Made by a program: the position numbers and the translations under genes. A stretch of 64,000 nucleotides of DNA from Bacteroidota bacterium (lineage in GTDB: Bacteria; Bacteroidota; Rhodothermia; Rhodothermales; UBA10348), in NCBI GenBank assembly GCA_022571255.1, contig JACZYD010000001.1, positions 3,892-67,891 on the forward strand, written 5' to 3'. A model generated the notes under the pieces. It was not told the DNA's origin. It saw only the letters and a list, made by a program, of their open reading frames with translations, and searched no databases. Below are positions 29,682 to 61,929 of this stretch, in pieces; within the stretch, counting starts at the first letter, position 1, and each line of letters opens with the position of its first letter.

Positions 29682-31160
29682 ATGTTACACCTTTCACAAC
29701 GGCAATCGCTGCAGCAAAAGCTGTCACCGCAACAGATTCAGTACATCAAACTGTTGCAGTTGCCGGCCCTTGCCCTCGAGCAGCGCATCAAGGCTGAAAT
29801 GGAAATCAATCCGATGCTGGAAGAAGGCCTGGATGAACTCGACGAAAAGTTGACGGCGGAGACCGCGGACGACACCCGGGAAGAGACGAAAGAGGGTGAA
29901 GAGAAGGATTCGAAAGAAGAAGAATACAATTGGAGCGAGCTGCTGGATAACGGCGACGATTTATATGGATACAAGGCTCGTGTGGATCGCAGCGCCGAGG
30001 AAGATCGCCAGGAATATGTACAGCCGGCATTGGACTCTGTGCTTGAGTCCATCCGCAAACAACTTGCCTTTCTGGAGCTGACTGACAACGAGGAACTGGT
30101 CGCGGATCAGATTATTGGCTCGATCGATGACGACGGTTATTTGCGTCGACCGCTGGAGTCCATAATCGACGACTTGGCCTTTAATCACGGTGTGTTGCTG
30201 AGCGAATCAGACATCGAAAGTGTGTTATACCGTGTTCAACGGCTTGATCCCGTGGGCGTGGCATCGCGTGATCTGCAGGAATGTCTGCTCGTACAGCTCG
30301 ATATGCTTTCTGCGGAAACCGCTGGGCGCGATACGGCAGTCGAAATGCTCCACCGCGCTTACAAGGAGTTCACGATGAAGCATTATGAGGCAATCATGCG
30401 TCGGCTGCACATCGACGGGGAGCAGCTGAAGGAGGTGTATGAACTCATTCAGCGCCTCGATCCGAAGCCGGGAGAGGGGGCATTTTCGGCATCATCGAAT
30501 TACGTCACGCCGGATTTTACGGTGCGGAATGACGACGATGGCTTCATCATCTATCTGAATAGCGCCAATGCACCCGAGCTTCGTGTATCGAAATCGTACC
30601 GGGAGATGCTCGAGAAAATCGTGGCGGAGAAAGACAAGGCAAAATCATCGTATGAGGCGGAAACCAAACAATTCCTGAAGTCCAAGTTTGAATCTGCCAG
30701 GTGGTTCATCCATTCCATTCAGCAGCGCCAGCAGACCATGACGCTCGTAATGCACGAAATCGTTCATCAGCAGGAAGACTTTTTCAAACTGGGAGAAGGA
30801 CACCTGAAGCCGATGATCCTCAAGGATATTGCAGAAGTGATCCGTATGGACATCTCGACGATCAGTCGAGTGGTTAACGGTAAATACGTACAGACGGATT
30901 TTGGGGTCTACGAGTTGAAGTATTTCTTCTCGGAAGGTCTCGCGACCGACGATGGTACGGAAGTGTCCAATAAAGAAGTCAAAGCCATCATCTATGGAAT
31001 CATCGTCGAAGAGGACAAGAAGAAGCCACTTTCCGATCAGAAAATTGCTACCATACTGTCGGACAGAGGATTTCATATCGCCCGGCGCACCGTGACAAAA
31101 TATCGCGAGCAAATGGGAACGCCGGTAGCGCGTCTGCGCAAGGAAATCGTCGTTTCCTGA
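29682..31160 (+). CDS. rpoN: RNA polymerase sigma-54 factor
   Basis: N-terminal glutamine/leucine-rich region I (LSQRQSLQQKLSPQQIQYIKLLQL), an acidic region II, the C-terminal HTH, and the RpoN box ARRTVTKYRE. Confidence 0.9.
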   Translation: MLHLSQRQSLQQKLSPQQIQYIKLLQLPALALEQRIKAEMEINPMLEEGLDELDEKLTAETADDTREETKEGEEKDSKEEEYNWSELLDNGDDLYGYKARVDRSAEEDRQEYVQPALDSVLESIRKQLAFLELTDNEELVADQIIGSIDDDGYLRRPLESIIDDLAFNHGVLLSESDIESVLYRVQRLDPVGVASRDLQECLLVQLDMLSAETAGRDTAVEMLHRAYKEFTMKHYEAIMRRLHIDGEQLKEVYELIQRLDPKPGEGAFSASSNYVTPDFTVRNDDDGFIIYLNSANAPELRVSKSYREMLEKIVAEKDKAKSSYEAETKQFLKSKFESARWFIHSIQQRQQTMTLVMHEIVHQQEDFFKLGEGHLKPMILKDIAEVIRMDISTISRVVNGKYVQTDFGVYELKYFFSEGLATDDGTEVSNKEVKAIIYGIIVEEDKKKPLSDQKIATILSDRGFHIARRTVTKYREQMGTPVARLRKEIVVS

Positions 31161-47882: not shown

Positions 47883-49661
47883 CTACTTTTTGCGGAATTT
47901 GGCTGTGATAGCTTCGATTTCAACATCCGATAAAACAGAAACAGTCTCTGAAACGGCCTGTTTCGGAGTATCCGCATCTTTATTGCCCACCGATCCTGCT
48001 TGTCCCGTTCGTCCGTTTTCCGATATTTTTGAGGGCGAGCTGGATCGTTCAGCGTCACCTGTCAACGGCGGGGCACCTTTTCCGGATATCGTTCCGGCGC
48101 GTTTTTTCACCCGAACGGAGCCCGCCCTGTCCCGAAGGCGGGAATCGATCTCATCCATCCAACTGCTGTCGCTCGGCGGTCGCTTTTTACGAAGTGTTTC
48201 ACCGTGCACTGTGCCCGGCGACGACAGGCTTGTTCGGGTCTGTTTTTCCTCGTAACGGGATGGCGTTTTGCCCGGGTGTATCGGGTGGGTCTCGAAGGCC
48301 ATTCGTTTAATGTTGATGAGATCCATAGGCGATATATTGTCGCTCGTAATGGATCCGCCCATGGTCCCGGGACCGAGTGTCATCGCAGGGAAAAGCCGCG
48401 TGGTATAGCCGACCGAGCCTAAGGCGCAGACCGAATTCACCACGATACGCATCGCCGGTTTTTCGAGTCCGAACGCCTCGATAACCCGATCGCTGGAAGC
48501 GTGAATTCCAAGGGTATGACCAATTCCACCGTAGGCAAGGATGTCCTTGCACCGCTCGCATCCCGCCTCCCATCCGTCCGTGTCGTAGAGCGTCAGAATG
48601 GGTGAAAGTGTTTCCATCGATAAGGGTTCTGCTTTTCCCACAACGTCGACTTCGGCGACGAGTGCGTGCGTTTCCGGGGGAACCGAGAAGCCGGCTTTTT
48701 CAGCAATGTACGAAGGGCTTTTCCCGACCTGATCGATATTGAGTGCTCCGCCGATTACTACGTAGACGCTTAAAAGGTCTTTTTGAACGTCATCAAGGAT
48801 ATATGCACCGGCACGACGAAGTTGGTCGATCAGCTTTTTCTTGATCGGTGTATCAGCCACGATACTGCGCTCGGTGGAGCACAGTGTACCATGGTCGAAA
48901 TATGCACCGTATACGATGTCTTTTGCCGCCTTTTCAAGGTCAGCCGATCGGTCCACGTACACCGGTACGTTTCCGGGACCCACTCCATATGCCGGTTTTC
49001 CTTTCGAATAGGCCGAGCGAACCATGGCCGCTCCGCCGGTGGCGAGGATCACATCGGTGTGGGGGTCTTCGAGCAGCGCATTGGTGCCGTCCAGTGAGAT
49101 TTCGGTCATACATCCGAATAATCCTTCAGGAGCCCCGGCTTCATAAGCGGCCCCGGCGACGACGTCTAACGCCTCTTTGATGCAGGACACCGCTCTCGGA
49201 TGCGGGCTGATTACGATCGCGCACCTCGCCTTGGCAGCGATTATCGCTTTATACATTGCCGTTGACGTCGGATTGGTTGACGGCACGAGCGCAGCCACCA
49301 CACCCATCGGAGACGCGATTTCCCAGACGGTATCCGACTCGGTTTTACGAATCACTCCACAGGTTTTCATTCCCTTGATTCTCTCGCCGAGCGTTCGAGT
49401 TGCAAAAAGATTTTTCAGTGTTTTGCTCTCGACGCGTCCGAATCCTGTCTCCTTGCAGGCAGCTTCAGCGAGCGACTCGGCCCGAGCGATGCCTGCCTTG
49501 ATCATCGCCGAAACAATTCGGTCAACAGATACTTGATCAAATGTATGATAGGCATCCTGCGCGACGGCGGCTTCGGCGACAAGTGTTCGCGCCTGTTGAA
49601 TTGAGCGGAGGTCAGAATCCATTACAGCATTACGGAGAAGTGGGAAGAGAATATGCACCAT
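47883..49661 (-). CDS. CoA-acylating aldehyde dehydrogenase (EutE/SucD/AdhE-N family) with a roughly 120-aa C-terminal low-complexity extension
   Basis: ATGGAAMVRSAYSKGKPAYGVGPGN, catalytic Cys context GTLCSTERS, and IGHTLGIHA. The core ends near TPSRYEE, which I compare from memory with VPSYEE at the C-terminus of Clostridium kluyveri SucD. A basic S/G/R/K-rich tail follows and ends in SDVEIEAITAKFRKK. Confidence 0.8.
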   Translation of the reverse strand: MVHILFPLLRNAVMDSDLRSIQQARTLVAEAAVAQDAYHTFDQVSVDRIVSAMIKAGIARAESLAEAACKETGFGRVESKTLKNLFATRTLGERIKGMKTCGVIRKTESDTVWEIASPMGVVAALVPSTNPTSTAMYKAIIAAKARCAIVISPHPRAVSCIKEALDVVAGAAYEAGAPEGLFGCMTEISLDGTNALLEDPHTDVILATGGAAMVRSAYSKGKPAYGVGPGNVPVYVDRSADLEKAAKDIVYGAYFDHGTLCSTERSIVADTPIKKKLIDQLRRAGAYILDDVQKDLLSVYVVIGGALNIDQVGKSPSYIAEKAGFSVPPETHALVAEVDVVGKAEPLSMETLSPILTLYDTDGWEAGCERCKDILAYGGIGHTLGIHASSDRVIEAFGLEKPAMRIVVNSVCALGSVGYTTRLFPAMTLGPGTMGGSITSDNISPMDLINIKRMAFETHPIHPGKTPSRYEEKQTRTSLSSPGTVHGETLRKKRPPSDSSWMDEIDSRLRDRAGSVRVKKRAGTISGKGAPPLTGDAERSSSPSKISENGRTGQAGSVGNKDADTPKQAVSETVSVLSDVEIEAITAKFRKK

Positions 49662-49879
49662 CGCGATCTTCGGCGCAACTGTGATATCAGTTTTTAAATC
49701 TCAGATTGATATGGAATCGGTCTCATGTCGGGTTCCTTTTTTCGCCGAAAACAGTGCAAACAGGCCATATCCTGATTTTAAGAAGGAATCAACTTCATAA
49801 TCGATACGGTATGCATAATCGGCACGGCATTTGAGTATAAAAAGATATCTCAAGCAGGAAGCATCCCCTCTCATAGAAT

Positions 49880-51304
49880 ATGGCTCTTCTGGAAAACACG
49901 AAATCAGATTACATGCCCTTTCTCTCCTCCGGAATCGAAACCATAGATTCTGCGTGGGGCGGATTGTTTTGCGGCGGTGCTTATCTCTTTTACGGAGAGG
50001 CCGCGGCGGGTCGCCATCTGCTCACCCTTCTGTTTGCCAGAGCGGGTGATGAATTCGACGAACAGACGATTTTCATTTCCTCTGATCGATATTCCGAATT
50101 GAAGATTCAATCCGGCTCACTCGGGTTTGATCTGGAGGCCGTACTGGCCTCCGGAAATCTGCACCTCGTCCGGATCCCTCCCCGTATGAAGTTGAGAGAA
50201 ATAGGAGACGACGGGGTTGCACAGGCCCTGCACAGTCTTACGAATCCGTTCAAATCGTACCGGCCCAAACGCATCATCATCAACGACTTTATGCCTTTTG
50301 TGGCGTTTCGTTCGTTCGAGAGATTCAGGATGGAATTCGTTCGATTCCTTGAAAGAACCGATGCCCTCGGATCCACATTGGTTCTGGGGATGTCCGAGCC
50401 CGCTAACGAACATTCCAGACGGGTCATCGAGTTCATGATCTCTCATCTGACAGGTGCGGTGCATATCGAGAGAGATGCCGAGGATCCAGGCTCAACAAAA
50501 CGTAAGCTTACACTCATTCCAACGTCTGGTCACATCAAGCGCTACTCGTTTGAACACTGGGACCTGGAAGACGTCGTAGCTGATACTCCACCCCATTTCA
50601 GGCCCTCAACCATGCAAAGCGTTCGACCCGGGGATACTCGTTCTCATAACTTGTCGACCCTGCAGACAAAGAAAACACTGGAATCAGAAGCCGCTGAAAG
50701 TTTCAGACCGGGCTATTCGCATACGCCATTGGTCGCCCCTCTGCAGGCTTCGGAAGAGGAAGTCGACGGTGAAGAGGTGGCGGTGGTTGCCGGGAAATCT
50801 ACCGCGAGCGACAGTGCGGCCGGCAAGAACGCAGAGGCAGACGATGCCGTCGCCATCGATCCGTTGGAACTCCCGGTCGGAAGTGGGTTGGATGTCGATA
50901 TTACAGACAGATCCTCATTCCTCAAGAGATTGGAGCGGGCAGTAGCATCCTCGTCCGAAGTCGGTGACAATTTCGTGATACTGGCTCTTCGCATGGAGCA
51001 ATCGGGCGATCCAAAGGACCGGGCGATTGGATTTGAGTTTCTGCTCGACGTTGTACACGATATTCTGCGACCACACGACGACATGCTCGTCGATATGGAT
51101 GGCGAACAACTGATCGTGTTTCTCGCACATACAAGAGAAGACGAATCGGATCAATTCTTTACTATGCTCAGGGATCATCTGATACGGGAAGCACCGCAAC
51201 GAGGCACCGATCTCCTTACCAGGATTTCCGCGATGGTCTCTGAAAACGGACGCCCGTTTTCTTCCGTGGTAGAATTCGTCACATTCGCTTTTATTCGAAA
51301 ATAG
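49880..51304 (+). CDS. KaiC/RecA-like domain protein with a degenerate P-loop, fused to a degenerate GGDEF-like C-terminal domain
   Basis: The N-terminus SGIETIDSAWGGLFCGGAYLFYGEAAAGRHLLTLLF follows the KaiC-like ATPase pattern (G.pgLD..LgGG...G...l..G.pGtGKT), but GKT is replaced by GRH. The C-terminus FVILALRME...FLLDVVHDILRPHDDMLVDMDGEQLIVFLAH follows the GGDEF-domain pattern, with DGEQL in place of GGDEF. Confidence 0.6.
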   Translation: MALLENTKSDYMPFLSSGIETIDSAWGGLFCGGAYLFYGEAAAGRHLLTLLFARAGDEFDEQTIFISSDRYSELKIQSGSLGFDLEAVLASGNLHLVRIPPRMKLREIGDDGVAQALHSLTNPFKSYRPKRIIINDFMPFVAFRSFERFRMEFVRFLERTDALGSTLVLGMSEPANEHSRRVIEFMISHLTGAVHIERDAEDPGSTKRKLTLIPTSGHIKRYSFEHWDLEDVVADTPPHFRPSTMQSVRPGDTRSHNLSTLQTKKTLESEAAESFRPGYSHTPLVAPLQASEEEVDGEEVAVVAGKSTASDSAAGKNAEADDAVAIDPLELPVGSGLDVDITDRSSFLKRLERAVASSSEVGDNFVILALRMEQSGDPKDRAIGFEFLLDVVHDILRPHDDMLVDMDGEQLIVFLAHTREDESDQFFTMLRDHLIREAPQRGTDLLTRISAMVSENGRPFSSVVEFVTFAFIRK

Positions 51305-51350
51305 TGCTGGTGAACGCCCTCTGAACGTGCCGGGCAGAATTTATTGTGGG

Positions 51351-52121
51351 TCACGGAGAATCTTGTCCCAGAAATCGGACAATGTCCGAGGTACCAAGCG
51401 GGCCGTGGCGATACAGGAAAGGCTCTCCGTATTCGGCCCCGATTCGATAACCGAAAGCACGAGCCCTGGCTTCTATCCACTTTACAAAGCCCGGATTCGA
51501 AACGAACGTTTCAGGCTCGTCATGTCCTTTCTCGTATGTCGGGTCAAATACCTGTGAATGGTATGCCAGGACAGCGTTCATTCTCTGCTCCCAGACGAAC
51601 GATACGTCTACAACAACGGTTGGCTCGAACGGGATTGACTGCATGTAGTGCAGTATATGCGCCGGACGCCACGCTCTTTCCGAGCGCGATGTGTCAGCTG
51701 GTCCGGTCGATACTATGATTTTGCGCAATCCCGAATAAAATGCAGCTTCAGAGATCAACGTGGAGGCTGCGCCATGATCCGGGTGGCGGCACTCGGCGGC
51801 CGGGATCAGCAGGATATCGGGACGGTGACGTCGCAGGACTTCAATGATCAGATTCCTGTTCCCGAGCGAGTTTTCGATGTGGCCATCACTCAATCCAAGG
51901 TTTTCCCGGAACGCAACCCCCATGATTTCTGTGGCTGCAGCAGATTCTTTCGATCGTAATTCCCGGGATCCCCTGGAGCCCAGCTCTCCCTCTGTGAGAT
52001 CAACAATTCCCACCCGGTAACCGTGCTGAACCAGCGAGCATACAGTCCCACCGGCGAATATCTCCACATCGTCCGGGTGCGCTCCAAAAGCGATCACGTT
52101 GGTTCTGGCGGGTTCAGACAC
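51351..52121 (-). CDS. bshB1: Bacillithiol biosynthesis deacetylase BshB1 (PIG-L/LmbE family)
   Basis: AFGAHPDDVEIFAGGT, IVDLTEGELGSRG and RHPDHGAAS motifs. bshC lies nearby. Confidence 0.75.
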   Translation of the reverse strand: MSEPARTNVIAFGAHPDDVEIFAGGTVCSLVQHGYRVGIVDLTEGELGSRGSRELRSKESAAATEIMGVAFRENLGLSDGHIENSLGNRNLIIEVLRRHRPDILLIPAAECRHPDHGAASTLISEAAFYSGLRKIIVSTGPADTSRSERAWRPAHILHYMQSIPFEPTVVVDVSFVWEQRMNAVLAYHSQVFDPTYEKGHDEPETFVSNPGFVKWIEARARAFGYRIGAEYGEPFLYRHGPLGTSDIVRFLGQDSP

Positions 52122-52159: not shown

Positions 52160-54865
52160 TCATCGAACGACAAGGTTTACAATTCGACCAGGCACGTAAA
52201 TTTCTCGAACGATTTCTTTCTCGGAAAGATGCCGGATTACGCTCAGATCGGCTTTCGCGATGGCCAGCACCGTGGCCTTGTCTGCGTCAGCCGGAATATG
52301 GATGTTTGCCCTGACTTTGCCGTTGACCTGTACCGCGATCTTGATCTCGTCAGACTTGAGAATTTCGGAATCGGCAACGGGCCAGTTTTCGTATGCCAGA
52401 CTGTCTGAATGCCCGATGCGACTCCAGAGTTCTTCGGCCATGTGTGGTGCAAGAGGTGCGAGAAGAAGAATAAACGGCTCGGCGATGCTTCGCGGGATCG
52501 AATCTTCGTGGACAAGGAGCGCCGTGAACTCTATGAGCGCAGCAATGGCCGTATTGAAACTCATTCGCTCCATGTCGTTCGTCACGCGATCGATCGTGCG
52601 ATGTAGCGCTGCGGTCAACTCCTTGGATGCCTCCCGATCGCTTACGAGCAGGGCATCGTCGAACTCTCCGATGAAGTTGCGCCAGACGCGCCTCAGAAAA
52701 CGATTTACCCCCACAATATCCCTGGTATTCCACGGCTTGGACGCATCAAGCGGACCCAGATACATTTCGTATAAACGCAGCGTATCACAACCGTATCGTT
52801 CGTTTATTTCGTCAGGGCTGACCGCGTTCTTCAGGCTTTTGCCCATCTTACCGTATTCCTGTTCGACTGAATTTCCGTTGTGGAAAAACAGACGTCCGGG
52901 TTGGTCCTGGACTTCTGTGGCTGGCTTGCCATGCTGATCTACGACTTCCGTGGCCTCAACAGCGATTCCACGGGCGTCACGATAGGCGAATGCCTGTATG
53001 TATCCCTGATTGAACAGTTTTCCAAACGGTTCCTTTGTGGACACATGCCCCAGGTCGAAGAGTACTTTGTGCCAGAACCGTGCATACAGCAGATGCAGAA
53101 CGGCATGTTCGACGCCGCCGATGTACAAGTCTACGCCGTTGCCGGACATCCAGTACTTTTCGAGTTCAGGGTCAACAAACCGCTCGTCGTTGTGGTTGTC
53201 GATAAACCGGAGATAATACCAGCACGACCCTGCCCATTGCGGCATCGTGTTCAATTCCCGCTCGTACGTCACTCCATCGATTTCGACGGTCCGCCAACTC
53301 TCCGGTGCGCGGCTCAGGGGAGGACGAGGAGGGGCGTCGGGATCCTCCGTGGTCTCCGGTCTGAAATCTTCCATGGGCGGAAGAGTAACGGGCAGGTCTT
53401 TTTCCGGGACGGTCCGGACAGATCCATCGGCGCCGTGGACCACAGGAAACGGCTCGCCCCAGTATCTCTGGCGACTGAATAGCCAATCCCGGAGGCGGTA
53501 TGTCACCGTACCTTCGCCTAACTTGTTTTCTTCAAGCCATTCGATCATTCTGGATTTCGCTTCTTGTATTCTCAAACCGTCCAGAAAACCAGAGTTGATG
53601 GCCGGTCCATCACCGGCATAGGCTGTGCCGTCAAAAGAATCCGGGGGCCTGACCGTTCTGATGATCTGAAGATCGAATGCTTCCGCGAACTCCCAGTCGC
53701 GCTCGTCCTGCCCGGGCACAGCCATGATTGCACCGGTGCCGTAACCCATGAGCACGTAGTCCGCGATCCAGACCGGAATATCTTCCCGCGTTGCAGGATT
53801 CGTTACAAATCCACCGGTGAATACGCCGGTTTTTATCCGTACATCCGCGGTGCGCTCACGCTCAGAACGGGCTGCGATTTTCAGCCGGTAATCGGCAACA
53901 GAATCTTCCCGCTCCGACGCAGTCAATTTATCTACAAGCGGATGTTCAGGGGCCAGAACCATGTATGTGGCTCCGAAGAGCGTGTCCGGGCGTGTGGTGA
54001 AGACGCGCACCACTTCGTCGTGATCGACAACCTGGAAATCGACGTGTGCTCCTTCGCTGCGGCCGACCCAGTTTCGCTGCATGATTTTGACTGATTCGGG
54101 CCAGTCTACGTCTTCCAGATCCTTTACCAATCGATTTGCATACGCAGTAATTCGAAGCATCCACTGCCTTAAGCCGCGCTTGTAAACCGGGAAATTGCCC
54201 CGTTCACTCCTTCCTTCGTTGGTTACTTCTTCGTTGGCCAGAACCGTGCCCAGAGCAGGGCACCAGTTCACCGGTACTTCTGCGATGTACGCCAGACGAT
54301 ACGTGGCCAGAACATGCTCCTTTTCCTCCTCTGATCCGGCATTAAACAGCTCATCGGTGGCCTCCAGATGTTTGATCAACTCCGAAATCGGCCTCGCCCG
54401 ATTCGTCTCTTCATCATAATAACTGTGATAGAGCTGCACAAAGATCCACTGGGTCCACTTGTAATAACTCTCGTCGGTGGTCGCCAGTGAACGATCCCAG
54501 TCATAACTCAGTCCGATGGCCTTGAGTTGGCGCAACATATTGGCAATATTGCGTTCTGTGGTGATACGCGGGTGTACTCCATGCTCCACGGCAAATTGCT
54601 CTGCCGGAAGGCCGAAAGCATCAAAACCCATGGGATGAAGTACGTTGAAACCCTTCATGCGTTTGTATCTGGCTACGATATCGGTAGCGATGTAACCAAG
54701 GGGGTGTCCCACATGAAGCCCGATGCCACTTGGATATGGAAACATATCCAGCACGAAATATTTGGGTCGGGACAGGTCGAGTTCTACAGGCGTTCGAAAG
54801 GTGCTGTTGCTGAACCAGTATTGCTGCCACCGGGCTTCGATTTCCTTGAACGGATACTCAGACAT
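52160..54865 (-). CDS. leuS: Leucine--tRNA ligase
   Basis: HVGHPLGY (HIGH), KMGKSLKN (KMSKS), 901 aa, with a CP1 editing domain. Confidence 0.95.
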   Translation of the reverse strand: MSEYPFKEIEARWQQYWFSNSTFRTPVELDLSRPKYFVLDMFPYPSGIGLHVGHPLGYIATDIVARYKRMKGFNVLHPMGFDAFGLPAEQFAVEHGVHPRITTERNIANMLRQLKAIGLSYDWDRSLATTDESYYKWTQWIFVQLYHSYYDEETNRARPISELIKHLEATDELFNAGSEEEKEHVLATYRLAYIAEVPVNWCPALGTVLANEEVTNEGRSERGNFPVYKRGLRQWMLRITAYANRLVKDLEDVDWPESVKIMQRNWVGRSEGAHVDFQVVDHDEVVRVFTTRPDTLFGATYMVLAPEHPLVDKLTASEREDSVADYRLKIAARSERERTADVRIKTGVFTGGFVTNPATREDIPVWIADYVLMGYGTGAIMAVPGQDERDWEFAEAFDLQIIRTVRPPDSFDGTAYAGDGPAINSGFLDGLRIQEAKSRMIEWLEENKLGEGTVTYRLRDWLFSRQRYWGEPFPVVHGADGSVRTVPEKDLPVTLPPMEDFRPETTEDPDAPPRPPLSRAPESWRTVEIDGVTYERELNTMPQWAGSCWYYLRFIDNHNDERFVDPELEKYWMSGNGVDLYIGGVEHAVLHLLYARFWHKVLFDLGHVSTKEPFGKLFNQGYIQAFAYRDARGIAVEATEVVDQHGKPATEVQDQPGRLFFHNGNSVEQEYGKMGKSLKNAVSPDEINERYGCDTLRLYEMYLGPLDASKPWNTRDIVGVNRFLRRVWRNFIGEFDDALLVSDREASKELTAALHRTIDRVTNDMERMSFNTAIAALIEFTALLVHEDSIPRSIAEPFILLLAPLAPHMAEELWSRIGHSDSLAYENWPVADSEILKSDEIKIAVQVNGKVRANIHIPADADKATVLAIAKADLSVIRHLSEKEIVREIYVPGRIVNLVVR

Positions 54866-54874
54866 ACCAATGTA

Positions 54875-56503
54875 TCAGAGTAATATGACTTGATGTTCGG
54901 TGGTATCAAGCTGGATTTCATGGAGAAGCCTTGTCACAAAATCCAGTCCGTACTTGTTGGCGAAATAGAGAGGCGATATCGTTCTCTCCTGCATATTTCC
55001 TCTGGGAAACAGGTTTGTTTTTACCCTTCTCATCTGTTCGTGCGTCTCATCGTGTCGTCTTTTTTCTGCCTTGATTACACGATTTCGAAGTTTATCCCAG
55101 TCTTTCAGCAATGTCGTACGGGTCGCCTCGGCAACTTTTACGAGCGATTGATCCACAGATTCGATCGCGGGCGAAACCGTGTTTACCGCATCATGGATGT
55201 GCTGGGAGGCGCGGCTGAAAATAGCATCTGCATCGATGTCCATGGACTCAACCGCATTCGAACGGAACATCTGATCGAGAGAACCCTCAAAATCAGAAAT
55301 GGACGATTCAAGTTTATTCAGCGCCCTCTGAATTTTTGGTTCCAGCACCGTGATACTTGCCCTCGGGTATACGATGGGCATCGGGACTCCGGCCCATTCA
55401 TACAGAGAGCGATACTGTGCGAAGTACGCGATTTCGGAAGGGCCCGCGATATACGCAGCAGTCGGAAGAATCAGATCCTGCATGATGGGCCTGAGGACTA
55501 CATTCGGACTGAACAATTCAGGAGCTGAATCCAGAAGTAAAAGCAGTTCGTCGAGCGTGTAGGACTTCGATCCGCACGTAAAACCATCATTGGATTCGTC
55601 TGGCCGAACAGCATGTCGTCCTTCATGCGTATGCAGAAATATGGATGTCGGACGCGATTGAACCTGAACGTGATAATTTTCCTCCAGTTTTCGGCTGGCG
55701 CCGGAAAGTAGACGCGCGGACTTTTCGTACTCTTTAAGTTCTTTCCGGAAAAGAGGTTTTGCAAGCTCCTTGAGTTCGGGGTCGTCACCATTGACAAACA
55801 CGATTCCCGTACCTTTGAAAAGTTGTGACAAAAGACGCGCAAATGCACTCAAAAATGTCTCCCCCTCGCGGTAAGCAGAGCGCACAAGATCCATCAATTC
55901 GTCGTGGAATTCAGAGGGCGTAAGTAAGGCGGCAAATTCATCAATACGCTCGGTGATCGAACTATCGAACATGACTCGGCCAACAGCCTGCGGGACGGTC
56001 TTCTGGCTCTGCGTCGCCCCCGAATACGTGACAGATTCCACCTCGTTTCGGTTCAACACGTAGGCAGAGGCAACTTCTGCCAGATCGTGATCCTCGCCCT
56101 CCAACCAGAACACGGGTACGACCGGTCTTCCCGTGTCTTTTTCCAGGCGTATGGTCAGTTGGATCGCTGTAATCGTTTTCAGAAGGGTATACAGCGGACC
56201 GCCAAAGAGCCCGAGTTGTTGACCCGTAACGACGGCTACTGCGTCGGGCTCCCTCAACTTTTCAATATTCTTTCGCGTGGCCTCGTCGGCATCATACAGA
56301 TCGGCCTGTTTTATCAGGGCTGCAACCAATTTGTCGCGATGTTTGAACTGATCGGCTACCTGCCGCGCAACCTGACCACGTTGGCGTGGATCCCGAAAAT
56401 CTCCTGGAAAATAGACGGCCAGTGTATCAAATTCCCCTGCGTATGCCTTAAAGAGTCTGGAAAATGATTTAAACTCCGAATATGGGAGGCGTGGTGGGGG
56501 CAT
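54875..56503 (-). CDS. bshC: Bacillithiol biosynthesis cysteine-adding enzyme BshC
   Basis: VVTGQQLGLFGGPLYTLLK...VPVFWLEGEDHDLAEV, FSPNVVLRPIMQDLILPTAAYIAGPSEIAYF and the C-terminal HQVILL closely parallel my recollection of Bacillus subtilis BshC (YllA). Confidence 0.9.
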   Translation of the reverse strand: MPPPRLPYSEFKSFSRLFKAYAGEFDTLAVYFPGDFRDPRQRGQVARQVADQFKHRDKLVAALIKQADLYDADEATRKNIEKLREPDAVAVVTGQQLGLFGGPLYTLLKTITAIQLTIRLEKDTGRPVVPVFWLEGEDHDLAEVASAYVLNRNEVESVTYSGATQSQKTVPQAVGRVMFDSSITERIDEFAALLTPSEFHDELMDLVRSAYREGETFLSAFARLLSQLFKGTGIVFVNGDDPELKELAKPLFRKELKEYEKSARLLSGASRKLEENYHVQVQSRPTSIFLHTHEGRHAVRPDESNDGFTCGSKSYTLDELLLLLDSAPELFSPNVVLRPIMQDLILPTAAYIAGPSEIAYFAQYRSLYEWAGVPMPIVYPRASITVLEPKIQRALNKLESSISDFEGSLDQMFRSNAVESMDIDADAIFSRASQHIHDAVNTVSPAIESVDQSLVKVAEATRTTLLKDWDKLRNRVIKAEKRRHDETHEQMRRVKTNLFPRGNMQERTISPLYFANKYGLDFVTRLLHEIQLDTTEHQVILL

Positions 56504-58322: not shown

Positions 58323-59249
58323 CTATGGTGCAAATTGCAAAAGAATGAATACGAGCTTCTCCAGATCTGACCGAACACGTTTTCCGACCTCAAGAACTTC
58401 ACTGTGATCCAGCCCCTCATGAGATATCCCCGCTGCATAATTCGTTACAGTGGACAGTCCGGCTACCGACATTCCCAGTCGGCAGGCCTCTAAAACCTCC
58501 GGCACGGTACTCATCCCTACCACGTCGGCACCGAGCCTCTTAAAAGCTCGAATTTCAGCGGGTGTTTCGTAGCTGGGACCCCTCGTCCAGAAATACGTAC
58601 CCTCGCTCGTATCGATTCCGGCCTCACGGGCTGTCTCAGATGCTTTCGCCATCCAATTCGTATCGTAATAAAACGCGCGCTCGCGAATTCGCGAACGGGT
58701 TTCGTTTCCTGGTTCTGTGAATTCGATCTGCGACCCGCGTCGCTTGTTATCCCGAGGATGCCCCTCCTGCGGCTTGTTATCCGGCCGTTTCGCCTCGGCC
58801 GATCCTCTCCGGACGTCCGGTCGACGGCCCCATGTCCAGTCGATGTGATCCGTGATCCACATCAGAGATCCCGGCTTGAGTCCGGCGCTGATACCGCCGG
58901 CAGCGTTGGTAACAATCAAATTTCTCGCACCAATCGCATGCACAAGACGCACTGGGAAAACAACATCATCGGGCGCATAACCCTCGTACATATGCACCCT
59001 CCCCTGAACCACGACCACGTCTACGCCTGCGAGATCTCCGACGACCAGTCGACCTTCGTGTCCCGGGACCGTGGATAAAGGGTAATTCGGAATAGAGGAC
59101 GTGCGGAGTACGACAGGGTTCTTCACGGCGTCGGCCAGCGCTCCGAGGCCCGAACCAAGAATGAGCGCAACCTCCGGGGCCTTCAGAACACGCTTGTTCA
59201 CATACTCGATTGCTTGTTTCAGTTTCTCAGAATAAACGGACGGCTCCAT
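58323..59249 (-). CDS. Purine nucleoside phosphorylase (PNP/PunA family) with a charged insertion
   Basis: ALILGSGLG, GRLVVGDL...VQGRVHMYEGY, TNAAGG and GMSTVPEV motifs. A roughly 30-aa basic insertion (RRPDVRRGSAEAKRPDNKPQEGHPRDNKRRGS) follows the DHID motif. Confidence 0.85.
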   Translation of the reverse strand: MEPSVYSEKLKQAIEYVNKRVLKAPEVALILGSGLGALADAVKNPVVLRTSSIPNYPLSTVPGHEGRLVVGDLAGVDVVVVQGRVHMYEGYAPDDVVFPVRLVHAIGARNLIVTNAAGGISAGLKPGSLMWITDHIDWTWGRRPDVRRGSAEAKRPDNKPQEGHPRDNKRRGSQIEFTEPGNETRSRIRERAFYYDTNWMAKASETAREAGIDTSEGTYFWTRGPSYETPAEIRAFKRLGADVVGMSTVPEVLEACRLGMSVAGLSTVTNYAAGISHEGLDHSEVLEVGKRVRSDLEKLVFILLQFAP

Positions 59250-61929
59250 GATCTTGAGGGTATAACATTTTTATCACGACCATGGTCATGTCGTCGCTTC
59301 GTCCTGCACCCTCGATGAAGTGGTGGACATCTTCTGTAAGTGCCCGCAGAATGGCACCCGATCCGCGTGCGCCGACACGGCCCACTTTATCTACAAGTCG
59401 CTTATCTCCATACAATTCTCGCCCTGAATTCATGGCCTCAGAAAATCCATCGGTATAAAAGACGAGTGTATCACCGGCGCTCAGTGGAATAGAGATTTCT
59501 TCTATCGTTTCATCGAATATGTTGCCATCCGTGAATCCTATCGCCATGCCGGTCGGCTGGAGCGGTTCTGCATCCTGGGAATCGTGTCGTTTGAAAATCA
59601 CGGGATTGTGTCCTGCCCGGGAGAAAATGAATGTGTTGGATTCCATGTCGACCACTCCATAAATCAGCGTGATGAATGTTCCGGCCGGCGCATTGCGCCG
59701 GAAGACGTCATTGGTTCGCCGCATGACTTCGGCGGGAGATTCGACAGAAGTGCTCAATGTCTGAATGACTCCTTTAACCAGCGTCATGTAAAACGAAGCT
59801 TCAATGCCCTTTCCGCTCACATCGCCGACAACGACCGCGAGCCGATTCCGGTCGATTTTGATAAAATCAAAATAGTCTCCACCAACTTCTGTGGCTGGAA
59901 GACACATTCCTGCAATATCAAGGCCGTCGACGCTTGGCATCCGGCGAGGGAGGAACCTGCTCTGAACCTGGTGGGCGATTTCGAGTTCGCGCTTGATTCG
60001 TTCCTGACTGGCCAGTTCCGTGATGTACTCTGGAAGGAATTGATCGATGTCGCCACCAGAGCGACGGCTCAGGATTCCAACAATTCCGACTACAAAAAAA
60101 GTGGATAAGATCAACGTCGCCAGCATGCCGTCAAGCCAGGCCGGTGAACCGGCGATCAAGAATCCTTCGCTCAGCGACCAGAATATTCCGGCGACGACGT
60201 AACCGAGAAATGCAGTGAAGAAGTCGAAGCGCATCATGCTCAGGCCAAGGATACAGGCAGCCGACACAGACACGCCCACGGATACCCACCCTACACTGAG
60301 GCCGAAGGGAGCGATCTGGAGAATACCGCCGAAGACACTGATCAAGACAACGGCGAACCACCAGTGATTGGCCACCCGATACGCGAAAGCTCCGATCCCC
60401 ACAAGCAGAATCATCATCAGCAGGAATCCGAAGCCCGTTTTTCCGACAATTGCAGAGAGGACAGGCCGCATGGAGGAATCAATAAACAGATCTTGTGGAA
60501 CATCGATGTTAAGAGACGGACTTACAACCAGTGCGAGGACACCCAGGCCGAGGAGAACACCCGCCAGAGATATTCCTCGAACAATTGCCCAGCCGACGTC
60601 CGTATTTCTGACATCACCCTTGCGAATCAGGATCAATGACAGCCATTTTTCAGGCCAGATCTCCCGGGTTACCGATTCGGATACGGCGGAAATCATGAAA
60701 ACGAAAAGAGACGACGCTCCGGCAATGACTGAAAAAATCAGCAGTATGAATCCCATTTGTACCCAGAGCGGCGAACTGCTTGTACCGATCGAAGCGACGC
60801 TGAGTACCGCCAGCAGTCCCAAAAATATTCCGATCATTACAGCGTCCACAATCGCTGTTTTTACATCAATCAAACGGGCTGTTATTCGCTTGAAAAAGAC
60901 GATGAGAAGAATCACGGAAAGGATCAGGTAGATCCCCACCATCACGGCGTTGAGCACCGAGGATGTGATGTCGTTGGACTCCCGATCGGGATTGAATACT
61001 ATATCGAGTTGGTTGAGATTGCCGAGCGTCGAGACAGTAATGTCTACACGTAAAATCTGACCGAACACCGGATCTGCAGAGATGAGACGCAGCGCCGCCA
61101 GTCGCGCAGCGCTTCCGGCAACTACATGAAGCGAATCGATCCTCCAATCGAGCGCCATGGCCATGTTTTCCGGTGCGTAGAACCGGGCGAGGGAATACAC
61201 GGCCTGTGAATCGAGTTCCACAACGCGATCATTTTCCAGGTCCCGTAACATGGCTGCGGAGTAAACACTGTCGAATGGCGACCGATTCCGGCCATTTCGT
61301 ACACCTGTGAAACTGAGGTTTGCCCGCAGCGAGGAGTCTGAAACGGAGCGAAGCCGGTTTCTGACGGCAATTTCTGTAGAATCGGCTCCAGACAGCGCTG
61401 CGGCTAACGCATCCCTGTTAATCGATCTGATACCTTGTCCAACAAGAGGCAGGGCAGCTTTATTTTCAGAAAGGTTGTTGTCAAATGACCAGATTATGCC
61501 ATCCAGGGTCATTTTTAATTCAAAAATGGTCGTCGCACCGGTTAAAATGGACATAATCCCTGCCGCGGGGTCCTCAAAGGAGTATTTCACCGACCAGTAG
61601 TAGCCGGGAAGCACGTCTCCCTCGTCCGATTTAAGTACCTCGATCGTGCGCGTGCGACCCAGGTCTTCCTGCATTGCCCGCAGAAGGAGGGTATTACGCT
61701 GAATTTTTGCACCAACCGTAAAATTATCTGGTACGTACCCCTGTGTCGCCAGGAAAATATTCGATCGATTGATGATCTCGTCTTCATCCAGGTCGTAACG
61801 AGCTGTGGAATCCGGGTGGCTCCCGGGCAAGACATAAATAAATGCCCAGACGCCTAGGATTGCCGCAATGAACAACAGCACATCTACGGCGCCTCCGTGG
61901 GTCGTTATGTTTTTTTCCCCGGGTGTCAA
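59227..61929 (-). CDS. Membrane-bound PP2C/SpoIIE-family serine phosphatase with a large N-terminal extracytoplasmic domain and about 10 TM helices
   Basis: The C-terminal PPM/SpoIIE domain has GGDYFDF, VVGDVSGKG, YTDGFSEA and GRSDDMTMVVIK. A long hydrophobic multi-TM block precedes it. Confidence 0.8.
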   Translation of the reverse strand: MTPGEKNITTHGGAVDVLLFIAAILGVWAFIYVLPGSHPDSTARYDLDEDEIINRSNIFLATQGYVPDNFTVGAKIQRNTLLLRAMQEDLGRTRTIEVLKSDEGDVLPGYYWSVKYSFEDPAAGIMSILTGATTIFELKMTLDGIIWSFDNNLSENKAALPLVGQGIRSINRDALAAALSGADSTEIAVRNRLRSVSDSSLRANLSFTGVRNGRNRSPFDSVYSAAMLRDLENDRVVELDSQAVYSLARFYAPENMAMALDWRIDSLHVVAGSAARLAALRLISADPVFGQILRVDITVSTLGNLNQLDIVFNPDRESNDITSSVLNAVMVGIYLILSVILLIVFFKRITARLIDVKTAIVDAVMIGIFLGLLAVLSVASIGTSSSPLWVQMGFILLIFSVIAGASSLFVFMISAVSESVTREIWPEKWLSLILIRKGDVRNTDVGWAIVRGISLAGVLLGLGVLALVVSPSLNIDVPQDLFIDSSMRPVLSAIVGKTGFGFLLMMILLVGIGAFAYRVANHWWFAVVLISVFGGILQIAPFGLSVGWVSVGVSVSAACILGLSMMRFDFFTAFLGYVVAGIFWSLSEGFLIAGSPAWLDGMLATLILSTFFVVGIVGILSRRSGGDIDQFLPEYITELASQERIKRELEIAHQVQSRFLPRRMPSVDGLDIAGMCLPATEVGGDYFDFIKIDRNRLAVVVGDVSGKGIEASFYMTLVKGVIQTLSTSVESPAEVMRRTNDVFRRNAPAGTFITLIYGVVDMESNTFIFSRAGHNPVIFKRHDSQDAEPLQPTGMAIGFTDGNIFDETIEEISIPLSAGDTLVFYTDGFSEAMNSGRELYGDKRLVDKVGRVGARGSGAILRALTEDVHHFIEGAGRSDDMTMVVIKMLYPQDHGAVRLF

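Follow-up and report, generated by a model that had tools for sequence, protein, structure and literature searches.

The DNA analysed here is a stretch of 64 kb from a bacterium of the order Rhodothermales, phylum Bacteroidota (contig JACZYD010000001.1 of assembly GCA_022571255.1); this whole stretch is referred to below as the window. We have shown that one of its genes, which we call the target (Table 1), encodes a double pseudoenzyme in which a domain with the KaiC fold is joined to a domain with the GGDEF fold. By analogy with known systems, we tentatively propose, with a confidence that stays somewhat below even, that the target protein is a cytoplasmic, non-catalytic adaptor/regulator or scaffold of synthase-dependent exopolysaccharide secretion, comparable to BcsE and PelD. 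The kind of system is already known, namely the degenerate-GGDEF accessory subunits of synthase-dependent polysaccharide secretion, and the target is a variant of it with a BcsE-like layout. An earlier note on this DNA, made from the letters alone, had suggested a receptor or a scaffold, and the evidence presented here leans to the second of these, or to a regulator, acting on a polysaccharide synthase. The open reading frame (ORF) of the target is complete and intact, with 474 codons followed by a stop codon; both this ORF and the 218-bp spacer that separates it from a divergent aldehyde dehydrogenase gene had been given exactly in that note.

The KaiC-like nature of the N-terminal domain is supported at the level of both sequence and predicted structure. 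Residues 16-210 match the Pfam family KaiC (PF06745) with an E-value of 6.1e-14 and a score of 52.4 bits (cut-off 26.6), and the best sequence match of the target in the PDB is KaiC (8zn5, 7e-15). The AlphaFold2 (AF2) model of the domain has a predicted local distance difference test (pLDDT) score of about 90 over residues 12-220, and the top 50 matches listed by Foldseek for this model are all to the CI or CII domain of KaiC, with E-values of ~1e-11. The resemblance to the KaiC template that had been read from the letters thus holds. It should be noted that the target is not KaiC proper: it scores 38.9 bits with the KaiC equivalog model NF006799, for which the cut-off is 408, and it contains one KaiC-like domain rather than a CI-CII tandem.

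The active site of this domain has been altered in a way that is common to the whole family. The conservation counts given here and below refer to the 124 two-domain cluster representatives and to the residue numbering of the window protein. Residue G39 of the P-loop is present in 122 of them, and G44 and R45 are present in 113 each; a lysine is never found at the position of this arginine. The residue that follows, which corresponds to the Mg-coordinating Ser/Thr, is variable (Gly in 39 representatives, Ser in 21, Asp in 17 and Thr in 11). In the family, S-[PS]-[DR]-R stands in place of the catalytic Glu-Glu pair of KaiC, and I-P-x-x-G in place of its K-x-R-G finger region; in the alignments with KaiC, the window protein reads L-I-P-T-S-G-H where KaiC has K-x-R-G-x-x-H. 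Strong conservation is also seen in the hhhh[NED]D-F strand and in an E-P-A-N motif, and the 42 genomic loci that we analysed repeat the same pattern in their N-terminal domains. These conservation patterns show that the ATPase machinery of KaiC has been dismantled, and indicate that a pocket with a GxxxxGR loop is still being selected. Because the pattern formed by the P-loop, D136 and EPAN is family-wide, the degeneracy does not reflect recent decay, and the domain is a stable pseudo-ATPase. The suspicion, raised from the loop GEAAAGRH, that hydrolysis is doubtful was therefore well founded.

The C-terminal domain is more remote from its relatives. It scores 17-20 bits with GGDEF_2 (PF17853; cut-off 24.5) and 14.4 bits with GGDEF (PF00990; cut-off 23.8), and among 21 aligned family members GGDEF_2 is matched by all 21 (best E-value 8e-5), GGDEF by seven and PelD_GGDEF by three, all GGDEF matches being sub-threshold. 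Comparison of the family profile with solved GGDEF domains was likewise sub-threshold (5euh, 0.22; 5xgb, 0.76). A jackhmmer search started from the GGDEF domain of E. coli DgcC against the six-frame ORFs of 693 kb of related DNA missed the C-terminal domain of the target, which shows that this domain is too remote for detection by sequence only; the same search detected no canonical GGDEF enzyme, a result that comes from a small, non-random sample and is uninformative for whole genomes. The stand-alone AF2 model of the domain has a pLDDT of 87.7 and a predicted template modelling (pTM) score of 0.82, with the order alpha-beta-alpha-beta-beta-alpha-alpha-beta-alpha. When this model was compared with the PDB by Foldseek, nearly all matches down to an E-value of ~1e-2 were GGDEF domains; they include 3ezu (2.4e-5), 6khu, 5llx, GcbC, DosC, SiaD and PleD, with E-values from 2e-5 to 1e-3 and TMq values of 0.57-0.67, and also PelD (4eu0; E=4.7e-4, TMq 0.65). 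The GGDEF template proposed earlier for this part of the protein is thus sub-threshold by sequence, and the fold assignment is supported by the AF2 model and its structural matches. Although GGDEF_2, which is known from PucR/CdaR proteins, gives the best consistent sub-threshold match, the target stays below its cut-off and has neither a PucR sensor nor an HTH_30 helix-turn-helix in a Pfam scan. To our knowledge, no function has been assigned to the GGDEF_2 domain itself.

The best-conserved features of the C-terminal domain are F365, A369, R371, F385, R410, F427, A451 and the P-[ND]-G-x-P-F loop, in which G457 is found in 122 and F460 in all 124 representatives. R371, conserved in 119, occupies the position of a metal-binding Asp of true cyclases, and R410, conserved in 110, lies in the hairpin that corresponds to GG(D/E)EF; the two arginines are located where metal-binding carboxylates would be expected. 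The window clade has a glutamine in place of R410. The register of this hairpin is ambiguous by one residue (M406-D-G-E-Q410 or D407-G-E-Q-L411), as the HMMER alignment and the hairpin of the AF2 model disagree. Since GG(D/E)EF is replaced and an arginine is present at the metal-Asp position, cyclase activity is excluded on the basis of the sequence. The earlier note had read DGEQL in place of GG(D/E)EF and had considered cyclase activity doubtful; the motif is gone family-wide, and the one-residue uncertainty in register should be added to that reading.

The two domains are connected by a linker for which the AF2 model gives pLDDT values below 50. Its net-acidic and disordered character agrees with what had been noted before; its length is 107 aa instead of about 120, and the acidity is concentrated in residues 286-338. 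Within the family, the linker varies from 31 to 361 aa (median 139) and in composition, being rich in Pro, Gln and Ala in most members. Conserved islands resembling docking motifs are embedded in this variable sequence. In the window protein such an island reads RPGYSHTPLVAP; its consensus in the window clade is PG[YF]SHxP[LI]V (also written PG[YF]SHTPLV), other members have [FI]IF[ET]PS, and distant members have GI[HR][YF]FD and G[YH][LF]VDS.

The combination of the two domains is characteristic of a family. A word-indexed search yielded 28 homologues, and an exhaustive search of 1.84 billion cluster representatives with a profile of the C-terminal domain retained 159 of them at E<=1e-3, each with the domain at its C-terminal end. 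Of the 184 sequences collected, 135, which come from independent metagenomes, contain both domains, and most of the others are short fragments; the two-domain architecture thus recurs far more than expected by chance. A scan of one genome per GTDB species gave 42 loci, all of them in metagenome-assembled genomes labelled Rhodothermales, Rhodothermia, Rhodothermaceae or unclassified Bacteroidota. The sequence data show that the family is vertically inherited and, to the extent that its members have taxonomic labels, confined to Rhodothermales. There is no dedicated Pfam or NCBIfam model for the family, no NCBIfam model reaches its cut-off, and the database names of its members are limited to 'KaiC/GvpD/RAD55 family RecA-like ATPase', 'archaellum biogenesis ATPase FlaH' and 'RAD55 family ATPase'. 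No publication on this family came up in literature searches on KaiC with GGDEF and exopolysaccharide or on Rhodothermus with diguanylate cyclase. The earlier statement that the architecture is not a described one therefore stands as far as a family model is concerned, but not for the layout as such, for which BcsE is a precedent. Six short proteins of 240-257 aa from distant clusters (P0157, P0159, P0162, P0164, P0167 and P0180) consist of the linker and the GGDEF-like domain and have no KaiC-like domain; their starts are similarly placed, shortly before a conserved GI[HR]YFDF motif, and they may be split-gene versions or have mis-called starts. P0002 (L056, positions 295-1854) has a 45-aa N-terminal extension that is absent from other members, probably owing to a mis-called GTG start.

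The evidence for a function in polysaccharide secretion comes from the gene context, which was determined by tblastn of reference neighbours against all loci. The target leads an operon in about 30 of the 39 informative loci; four loci end too early. In 29 of these loci, the gene directly 3' of the target encodes a putative outer-membrane protein of 1070-1290 aa with a signal peptide, many tetratricopeptide repeats (TPRs) and an unannotated C-terminal domain of ~350 aa, which matches PgaA weakly (TIGR03939, 1.6e-6); in one locus, only the next gene of the operon is present. That gene, found after the TPR gene wherever the contig continues, encodes a membrane-embedded family 2 glycosyltransferase (GT2) of ~500 aa that has a cytoplasmic extension of ~100 aa at its N-terminus; the enzyme matches PgaC_IcaA (TIGR03937) with an E-value of 1.2e-57 (196 bits, below the cut-off of 422) and, among solved synthases, hyaluronan synthase (4e-16) and the cellulose synthase BcsA (3e-11). 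A fourth gene, present in ~24 loci (e.g. L020, 15338-15775, +), encodes a protein of ~145 aa that matches no family; it has a single N-terminal transmembrane helix and a tail rich in Gln and Pro. The next gene starts between -25 and 103 bp from the stop codon of the target (median 16 bp), and in several loci the two genes overlap by 4 bp; such overlaps and very short gaps indicate that the target and the TPR gene are co-transcribed. The polysaccharide cluster is Pga-like and not of the Bcs type. No recognisable PgaD is present in the Rhodothermales cluster and the GT2 protein has no PilZ domain; the absence of a recognisable PgaD leaves room for a different accessory protein.

The order target-TPR-GT2 is also found with a different upstream neighbourhood, in at least five loci (L030-L034, L038). 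In the dominant arrangement, the operon is preceded on the minus strand by accC-accB-efp and the aldehyde dehydrogenase gene, then by a gene (+) for a protein of ~213-236 aa without Pfam or NCBIfam match, and then by a gene (-) for a lipoprotein of ~625-690 aa with Big_7 and PQQ/BamB-like propeller domains, after which the target (+) follows. Nine loci carry no polysaccharide genes next to the target, namely the window, L001, L006, L012, L013, L023, L029, L037 and L039.

Two further observations concern the small genes of these clusters. The ~145-aa membrane protein could, by its position, be a counterpart of BcsF or PgaD and serve this system as membrane partner. The ~213-236-aa protein combines a cytoplasmic region at its N-terminus with a single transmembrane helix and a domain in the periplasm. 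Its gene (for example, L001 4251-4892, L054 3436-4143, L055 2102-2797 and L003 5067-5708, all +) immediately precedes the target in many relatives, the sister lineages of the window among them; the window itself lacks this gene and has only the 218-bp spacer.

The upstream region of the target contains a motif of the type recognized by sigma-54. The -24/-12 consensus of sigma-54 promoters is TGGCAC-N5-TTGCW. A strict GGCAC-N5-TTG[CAT] motif, for which the background rate is 0.02 per 400 nt, is present upstream of the target in 19 of the 42 loci, and a weight matrix corresponding to YGGCAY-N4-TTTGW detects the motif in 40 of the 42 at a consistent position, ~45-115 nt before the start codon, in operon-linked and orphan genes alike. 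The GG-N10-(T)G spacing fits the consensus, and the C of the -12 element is replaced by A, T or G. In the window, the motif is CGGCACGGCATTTGA, a block that is conserved in the upstream alignment of the window clade, and rpoN is encoded in the window as well. Counted in the window by itself, the motif does not reach significance (two matches versus 1.1 expected); its support derives from the conservation of its position across loci. Such a promoter would imply regulated expression that depends on an enhancer-binding protein. The conserved motif further implies that the promoter in the 218-bp spacer belongs to the target itself and is not part of a regulatory unit shared with the dehydrogenase. 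Scans of positions 49500-51500 for intrinsic terminators and sigma-70 promoters gave no more matches than expected by chance.

Several known proteins allow a comparison with the target. BcsE, a cytoplasmic regulator of cellulose secretion in E. coli and Salmonella, is predicted to have an N-terminal RecA-like fold, modelled on KaiC, without conservation of Walker A. This is followed by a degenerate REC-GGDEF tandem, which binds cyclic di-GMP (c-di-GMP) at an RxxD motif and BcsQ through another surface; bcsE also heads bcsEFG (PMC7439463). The target resembles it in having a RecA/KaiC-like N-terminal domain without a functional Walker A, in its dead GGDEF domain and, in most informative loci, in the position of its gene as leader of a synthase-dependent polysaccharide operon. 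Moreover, the small membrane partner BcsF is encoded in the same operon as BcsE (PMC7439463; PMC8461298), and the operon of the target family likewise encodes a small membrane protein. There are also clear differences. BcsE has a degenerate receiver between its modules, whereas the target has a disordered linker only, with no receiver fold; Walker A is simply absent from BcsE, whereas the target family keeps the P-loop glycines together with an arginine; and the target family belongs to another phylum, has a patchily conserved I-site and is linked to a PgaC-like synthase without PilZ, and its window copy lacks polysaccharide genes. The BcsE family PF10995 (GIL/DUF2819) gave no match at E<=1 with either the full protein or the 21 C-terminal domains. 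The resemblance to BcsE is architectural and contextual, and probably convergent.

PelD of the Pseudomonas Pel system and PssE of the Listeria Pss system are other degenerate-GGDEF subunits encoded in polysaccharide operons (PMC8461298; PMC4125290). Like these non-catalytic regulatory subunits, the target has an RxxD motif upstream of its degenerate motif. However, PelD contains four transmembrane helices and a GAF domain and PssE is a membrane protein, whereas the target is soluble and carries a KaiC-like domain. The synthesis of poly-N-acetylglucosamine (PNAG) in E. coli is activated by c-di-GMP via PgaC-PgaD (PMC8461298). With KaiC, ArlH/FlaH and RAD55/RadA-type proteins (PF06745), finally, the target shares the fold and the sequence profile of residues 12-231, but it has a single domain with GxxAxGR[GSDH] instead of GxxGxGK[ST], has lost the glutamates and the finger, and is fused to a GGDEF fold.

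In the mechanism that we propose, oligomerisation and docking would be the task of the KaiC-like domain, and the linker would act as a tether. Contact with the synthase complex, and perhaps the sensing of a nucleotide, would fall to the degenerate GGDEF domain. In concert, the three parts would control the assembly or the activity of the exopolysaccharide secretion machine.

The evidence on the C-terminal domain may also be read in another way, namely that the target is a c-di-GMP receptor, whose degenerate GGDEF domain binds the nucleotide via an RxxD I-site, as PelD, BcsE and PssE do, and transmits the signal; we regard this as possible, though unlikely. The motif R397-P-H-D400 lies directly before the beta-hairpin, in the canonical I-site register ('RxxD + 5 residues + GGDEF') according to the AF2 hairpin and one residue off according to the HMMER alignment. 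All of the 41 GTDB Rhodothermales loci have D400 and 37 of them have R397, basic residues line the helix after the hairpin, PelD is among the structural matches, and degenerate-GGDEF I-site receptors recur in polysaccharide operons. However, among the cluster representatives, R397 is conserved in 58 of 124 only (Gly in 28, Pro in 11), and the equivalent of the R367, D370 and R402 triad that PelD requires for binding (R397, D400 and R429) is complete in 33, the window protein having M429. The arginines R371 and R410, located at the former active site, and the P-[ND]-G-x-P-F loop are far better conserved than the I-site, and no canonical GGDEF enzyme was detected in the 693 kb of related DNA, small and non-random as this sample is. 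Thus, the check for an I-site motif that the earlier note had advised gave RPHD in the window protein, where a canonical I-site is possible, and also showed that the site is not a defining feature of the family. For the N-terminal domain, the strong conservation of the GxxxxGR loop, the hhhh[NDE]D strand and EPAN, which indicates a selected pocket, might suggest an active nucleoside triphosphatase or autokinase with an arginine P-loop. This is very improbable in view of the complete absence of the Walker-A lysine, the variability at the Mg-coordinating Ser/Thr position and the replacement of both the Glu pair and the finger.

The genomic context, in turn, could be explained by a housekeeping or unrelated role of a core Rhodothermales gene, next to which polysaccharide genes were inserted without functional coupling. 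We consider this rather improbable. The target is located in a conserved core block, accC-accB-efp / bshB1-leuS-bshC, in the window, L001, L012, L029 and L023; in the distant L045 it is again found beside PIG-L and leuS genes, and in L044 it lies between pyrG and uvrA; and the lineages without adjacency to the polysaccharide genes keep the target intact. The overlaps and very short gaps to the TPR gene argue instead for co-transcription, the order target-TPR-GT2 persists where the upstream context differs, and a sigma-54 promoter implies regulated rather than constitutive expression. In addition, the window clade is nested among operon-linked members in a rough neighbour-joining (NJ) tree, which fits secondary loss. 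Hardly credible is a functional partnership with the divergent, C-terminally extended aldehyde dehydrogenase, which is adjacent in the window and co-occurs nearby in many loci. In most loci, the ~215-235-aa gene and the gene for the ~625-690-aa propeller lipoprotein intervene, no dehydrogenase gene is found nearby at L004, L030-L034 and L038, and the dehydrogenase gene travels with efp-accBC. The survey of co-occurrence with the dehydrogenase that had been recommended thus revealed synteny only, with one or two genes intervening in most relatives and several loci without a dehydrogenase gene, and we reject the partnership on the basis of gene order.

Some results weigh against our proposal that the target acts in polysaccharide secretion. 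According to tblastn, neither the TPR exporter, nor the GT2 synthase, nor the propeller lipoprotein is encoded in the 64-kb window, so the link of the window protein with polysaccharides is by descent only. The adjacency is missing from at least nine lineages, some of them basal or distant (L029, L037, L039, L044, L045), and the family may therefore predate the operon. Homology with BcsE is not claimed, as hhalign of the family alignment with E. coli BcsE gave a probability of 0.2%.

The window clade (L001, P0002, P0003 and P0004) deserves attention in this respect. Its context consists of the dehydrogenase gene, an optional ~235-aa gene, the target and the convergent bshB1. In the rough NJ tree, the long branch formed by this clade arises from among operon-linked members; the lineages without the operon include several basal ones. 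The simplest reading is that the polysaccharide genes were secondarily lost in the lineage of the window; the tree is too crude to settle whether the link with the operon is ancestral to the whole family. The orphan gene is still under constraint. Between the window and L001, the N-terminal domains are 73% identical with a rate of non-synonymous substitution (dN) of 0.19, the C-terminal domains 61% with a dN of 0.28, and the linkers 38% with a dN of 0.77; as synonymous substitutions (dS) are saturated, only the contrast in dN between domains and linker was used. Both domains evolve three to four times slower than the linker, and the gene is thus no relic. The clade has changed at near-invariant positions (R40E, R410Q, and V454-P455 to S-E or A-K, with P455E in the window), and these substitutions fit a change of partner. 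We infer that the window protein either serves a synthase encoded elsewhere after relocation or has a different partner. An identical target protein is found on 18 contigs from several metagenomes, with the same context each time. Near-identical contigs had no power for an analysis of selection, since six have 0-1 differences and one has seven (two synonymous and five non-synonymous).

A bolder version of our proposal, to which we assign a low probability, is that a BcsE-like regulator arose independently in Rhodothermales through fusion of a KaiC-type with a GGDEF-type domain, and that both dead pockets, instead of just decaying, were rebuilt as sensors. The GxxxxGR loop and the R371/R410 pair would then each bind a nucleotide or second messenger, forming a two-input switch for a sigma-54-controlled, PNAG-like machine, which would have been re-wired to another target in the window clade after loss of the operon.

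Table 1. Positions of the target gene, its features and selected neighbours in the window. Residue numbers are those of the target protein unless stated otherwise.
Feature	Position (nt)	Strand	Residues (aa)	Remarks
rpoN	29682-31160			sigma-54 gene
Acylating aldehyde dehydrogenase gene	47883..49661	-		592 aa; divergent 5' neighbour of the target
Spacer between dehydrogenase and target genes	49662..49879	.		218 bp; sister lineages have an extra ~235-aa gene there
Sigma-54-type motif CGGCACGGCATTTGA	49820..49834	+		-24 GG at 49821-49822, -12 TTTG at 49830-49833; ~46 nt before ATG
Target ORF	49880..51304	+	1-474	stop codon included
KaiC/RecA-like pseudo-ATPase domain	49913..50572	+	12-231	Pfam, PDB sequence match, AF2, Foldseek
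Degenerate P-loop GEAAAGRH	49994..50017	+	39-46	G39...R45-H46; family consensus G-x-A-x-x-G-R-[GSDH]
SSDR	50078..50089	+	67-70	occupies the KaiC catalytic Glu-Glu position
Walker-B-like strand RIIINDF	50270..50290	+	131-137	D136 in 114/124 representatives
Disordered net-acidic linker	50573..50893	+	232-338	107 aa; AF2 pLDDT <50; net charge -10
Linker island RPGYSHTPLVAP	50705-50740		276-287	docking-motif-like
Degenerate GGDEF-fold domain	50894..51301	+	339-474	~136 aa; sub-threshold profiles, AF2, Foldseek
ALRME, end of beta-1	50984..50998	+	369-373	R371 (119/124) at the metal-binding Asp position of true cyclases
RPHD (RxxD)	51068..51079	+	397-400	directly before the hairpin; at or within one residue of I-site register
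MDGEQL, hairpin equivalent of GG(D/E)EF	51095..51112	+	406-411	family consensus x-[DE]-x-E-R; window clade Q for R410
ENGRPF	51242..51259	+	455-460	top conserved motif P-[ND]-G-x-P-F; window clade E/K for first P
bshB1	51351-52121	-		bacillithiol gene
leuS	52160-54865	-		flanked by bshB1 and bshC
bshC	54875-56503	-		bacillithiol gene
Gene for SpoIIE/PP2C protein	59227-61929	-		900 aa

The neighbours of the target in the window are mainly housekeeping genes. The convergent bshB1 (TIGR04001, 1.5e-81) lies 46 bp past the stop codon of the target and is followed by leuS and bshC. The arrangement of target, bshB1 and leuS is also present in the distant family member L045, so this adjacency is old. 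The wider surroundings include guaA, a BamD-like gene, accB/accC, efp, gcvP, rnc, rpoN, ruvB and recX. On the other side, the aldehyde dehydrogenase (EutE-like) matches the acetylating acetaldehyde dehydrogenase model TIGR02518 over residues 15-457 (1e-157); its C-terminal tail of ~130 aa is rich in Ser, Arg and Lys and has no match. The dehydrogenase gene accompanies efp-accB-accC in most Rhodothermales loci, and on the metagenome contigs L052 and L053 it was called truncated or split, possibly because of assembly errors. The 900-aa protein listed last in Table 1 has a SpoIIE/PP2C phosphatase domain at residues 694-887, and its N-terminal ~690 residues have no Pfam match. A role of the target in anti-phage defence is unsupported, as a scan with the PADLOC models gave no match to the target at E<=0.1.

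In summary, the target combines two degenerate enzyme folds in a layout that resembles that of BcsE, and its relatives lead Pga-like operons in most informative loci. The synthase-dependent systems for cellulose, Pel, PNAG, alginate and Pss each have their own accessory sensor. If our proposal is correct, a Pga-like system without PgaD or PilZ that is headed by a double pseudoenzyme would add a solution reached independently, in a phylum in which biofilms have hardly been studied. Such a system would moreover represent a second, apparently convergent BcsE design, through which the role of BcsE's enigmatic RecA-like module could be approached by comparison. The Lys-to-Arg P-loop and the pair of arginines at the former active site are concrete candidate ligand sites. 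For annotation, a prediction based on context would replace the misleading names 'RAD55 family ATPase' and 'archaellum ATPase FlaH', with the window copy being an orphan of a family whose other members may serve the secretion of a polysaccharide.

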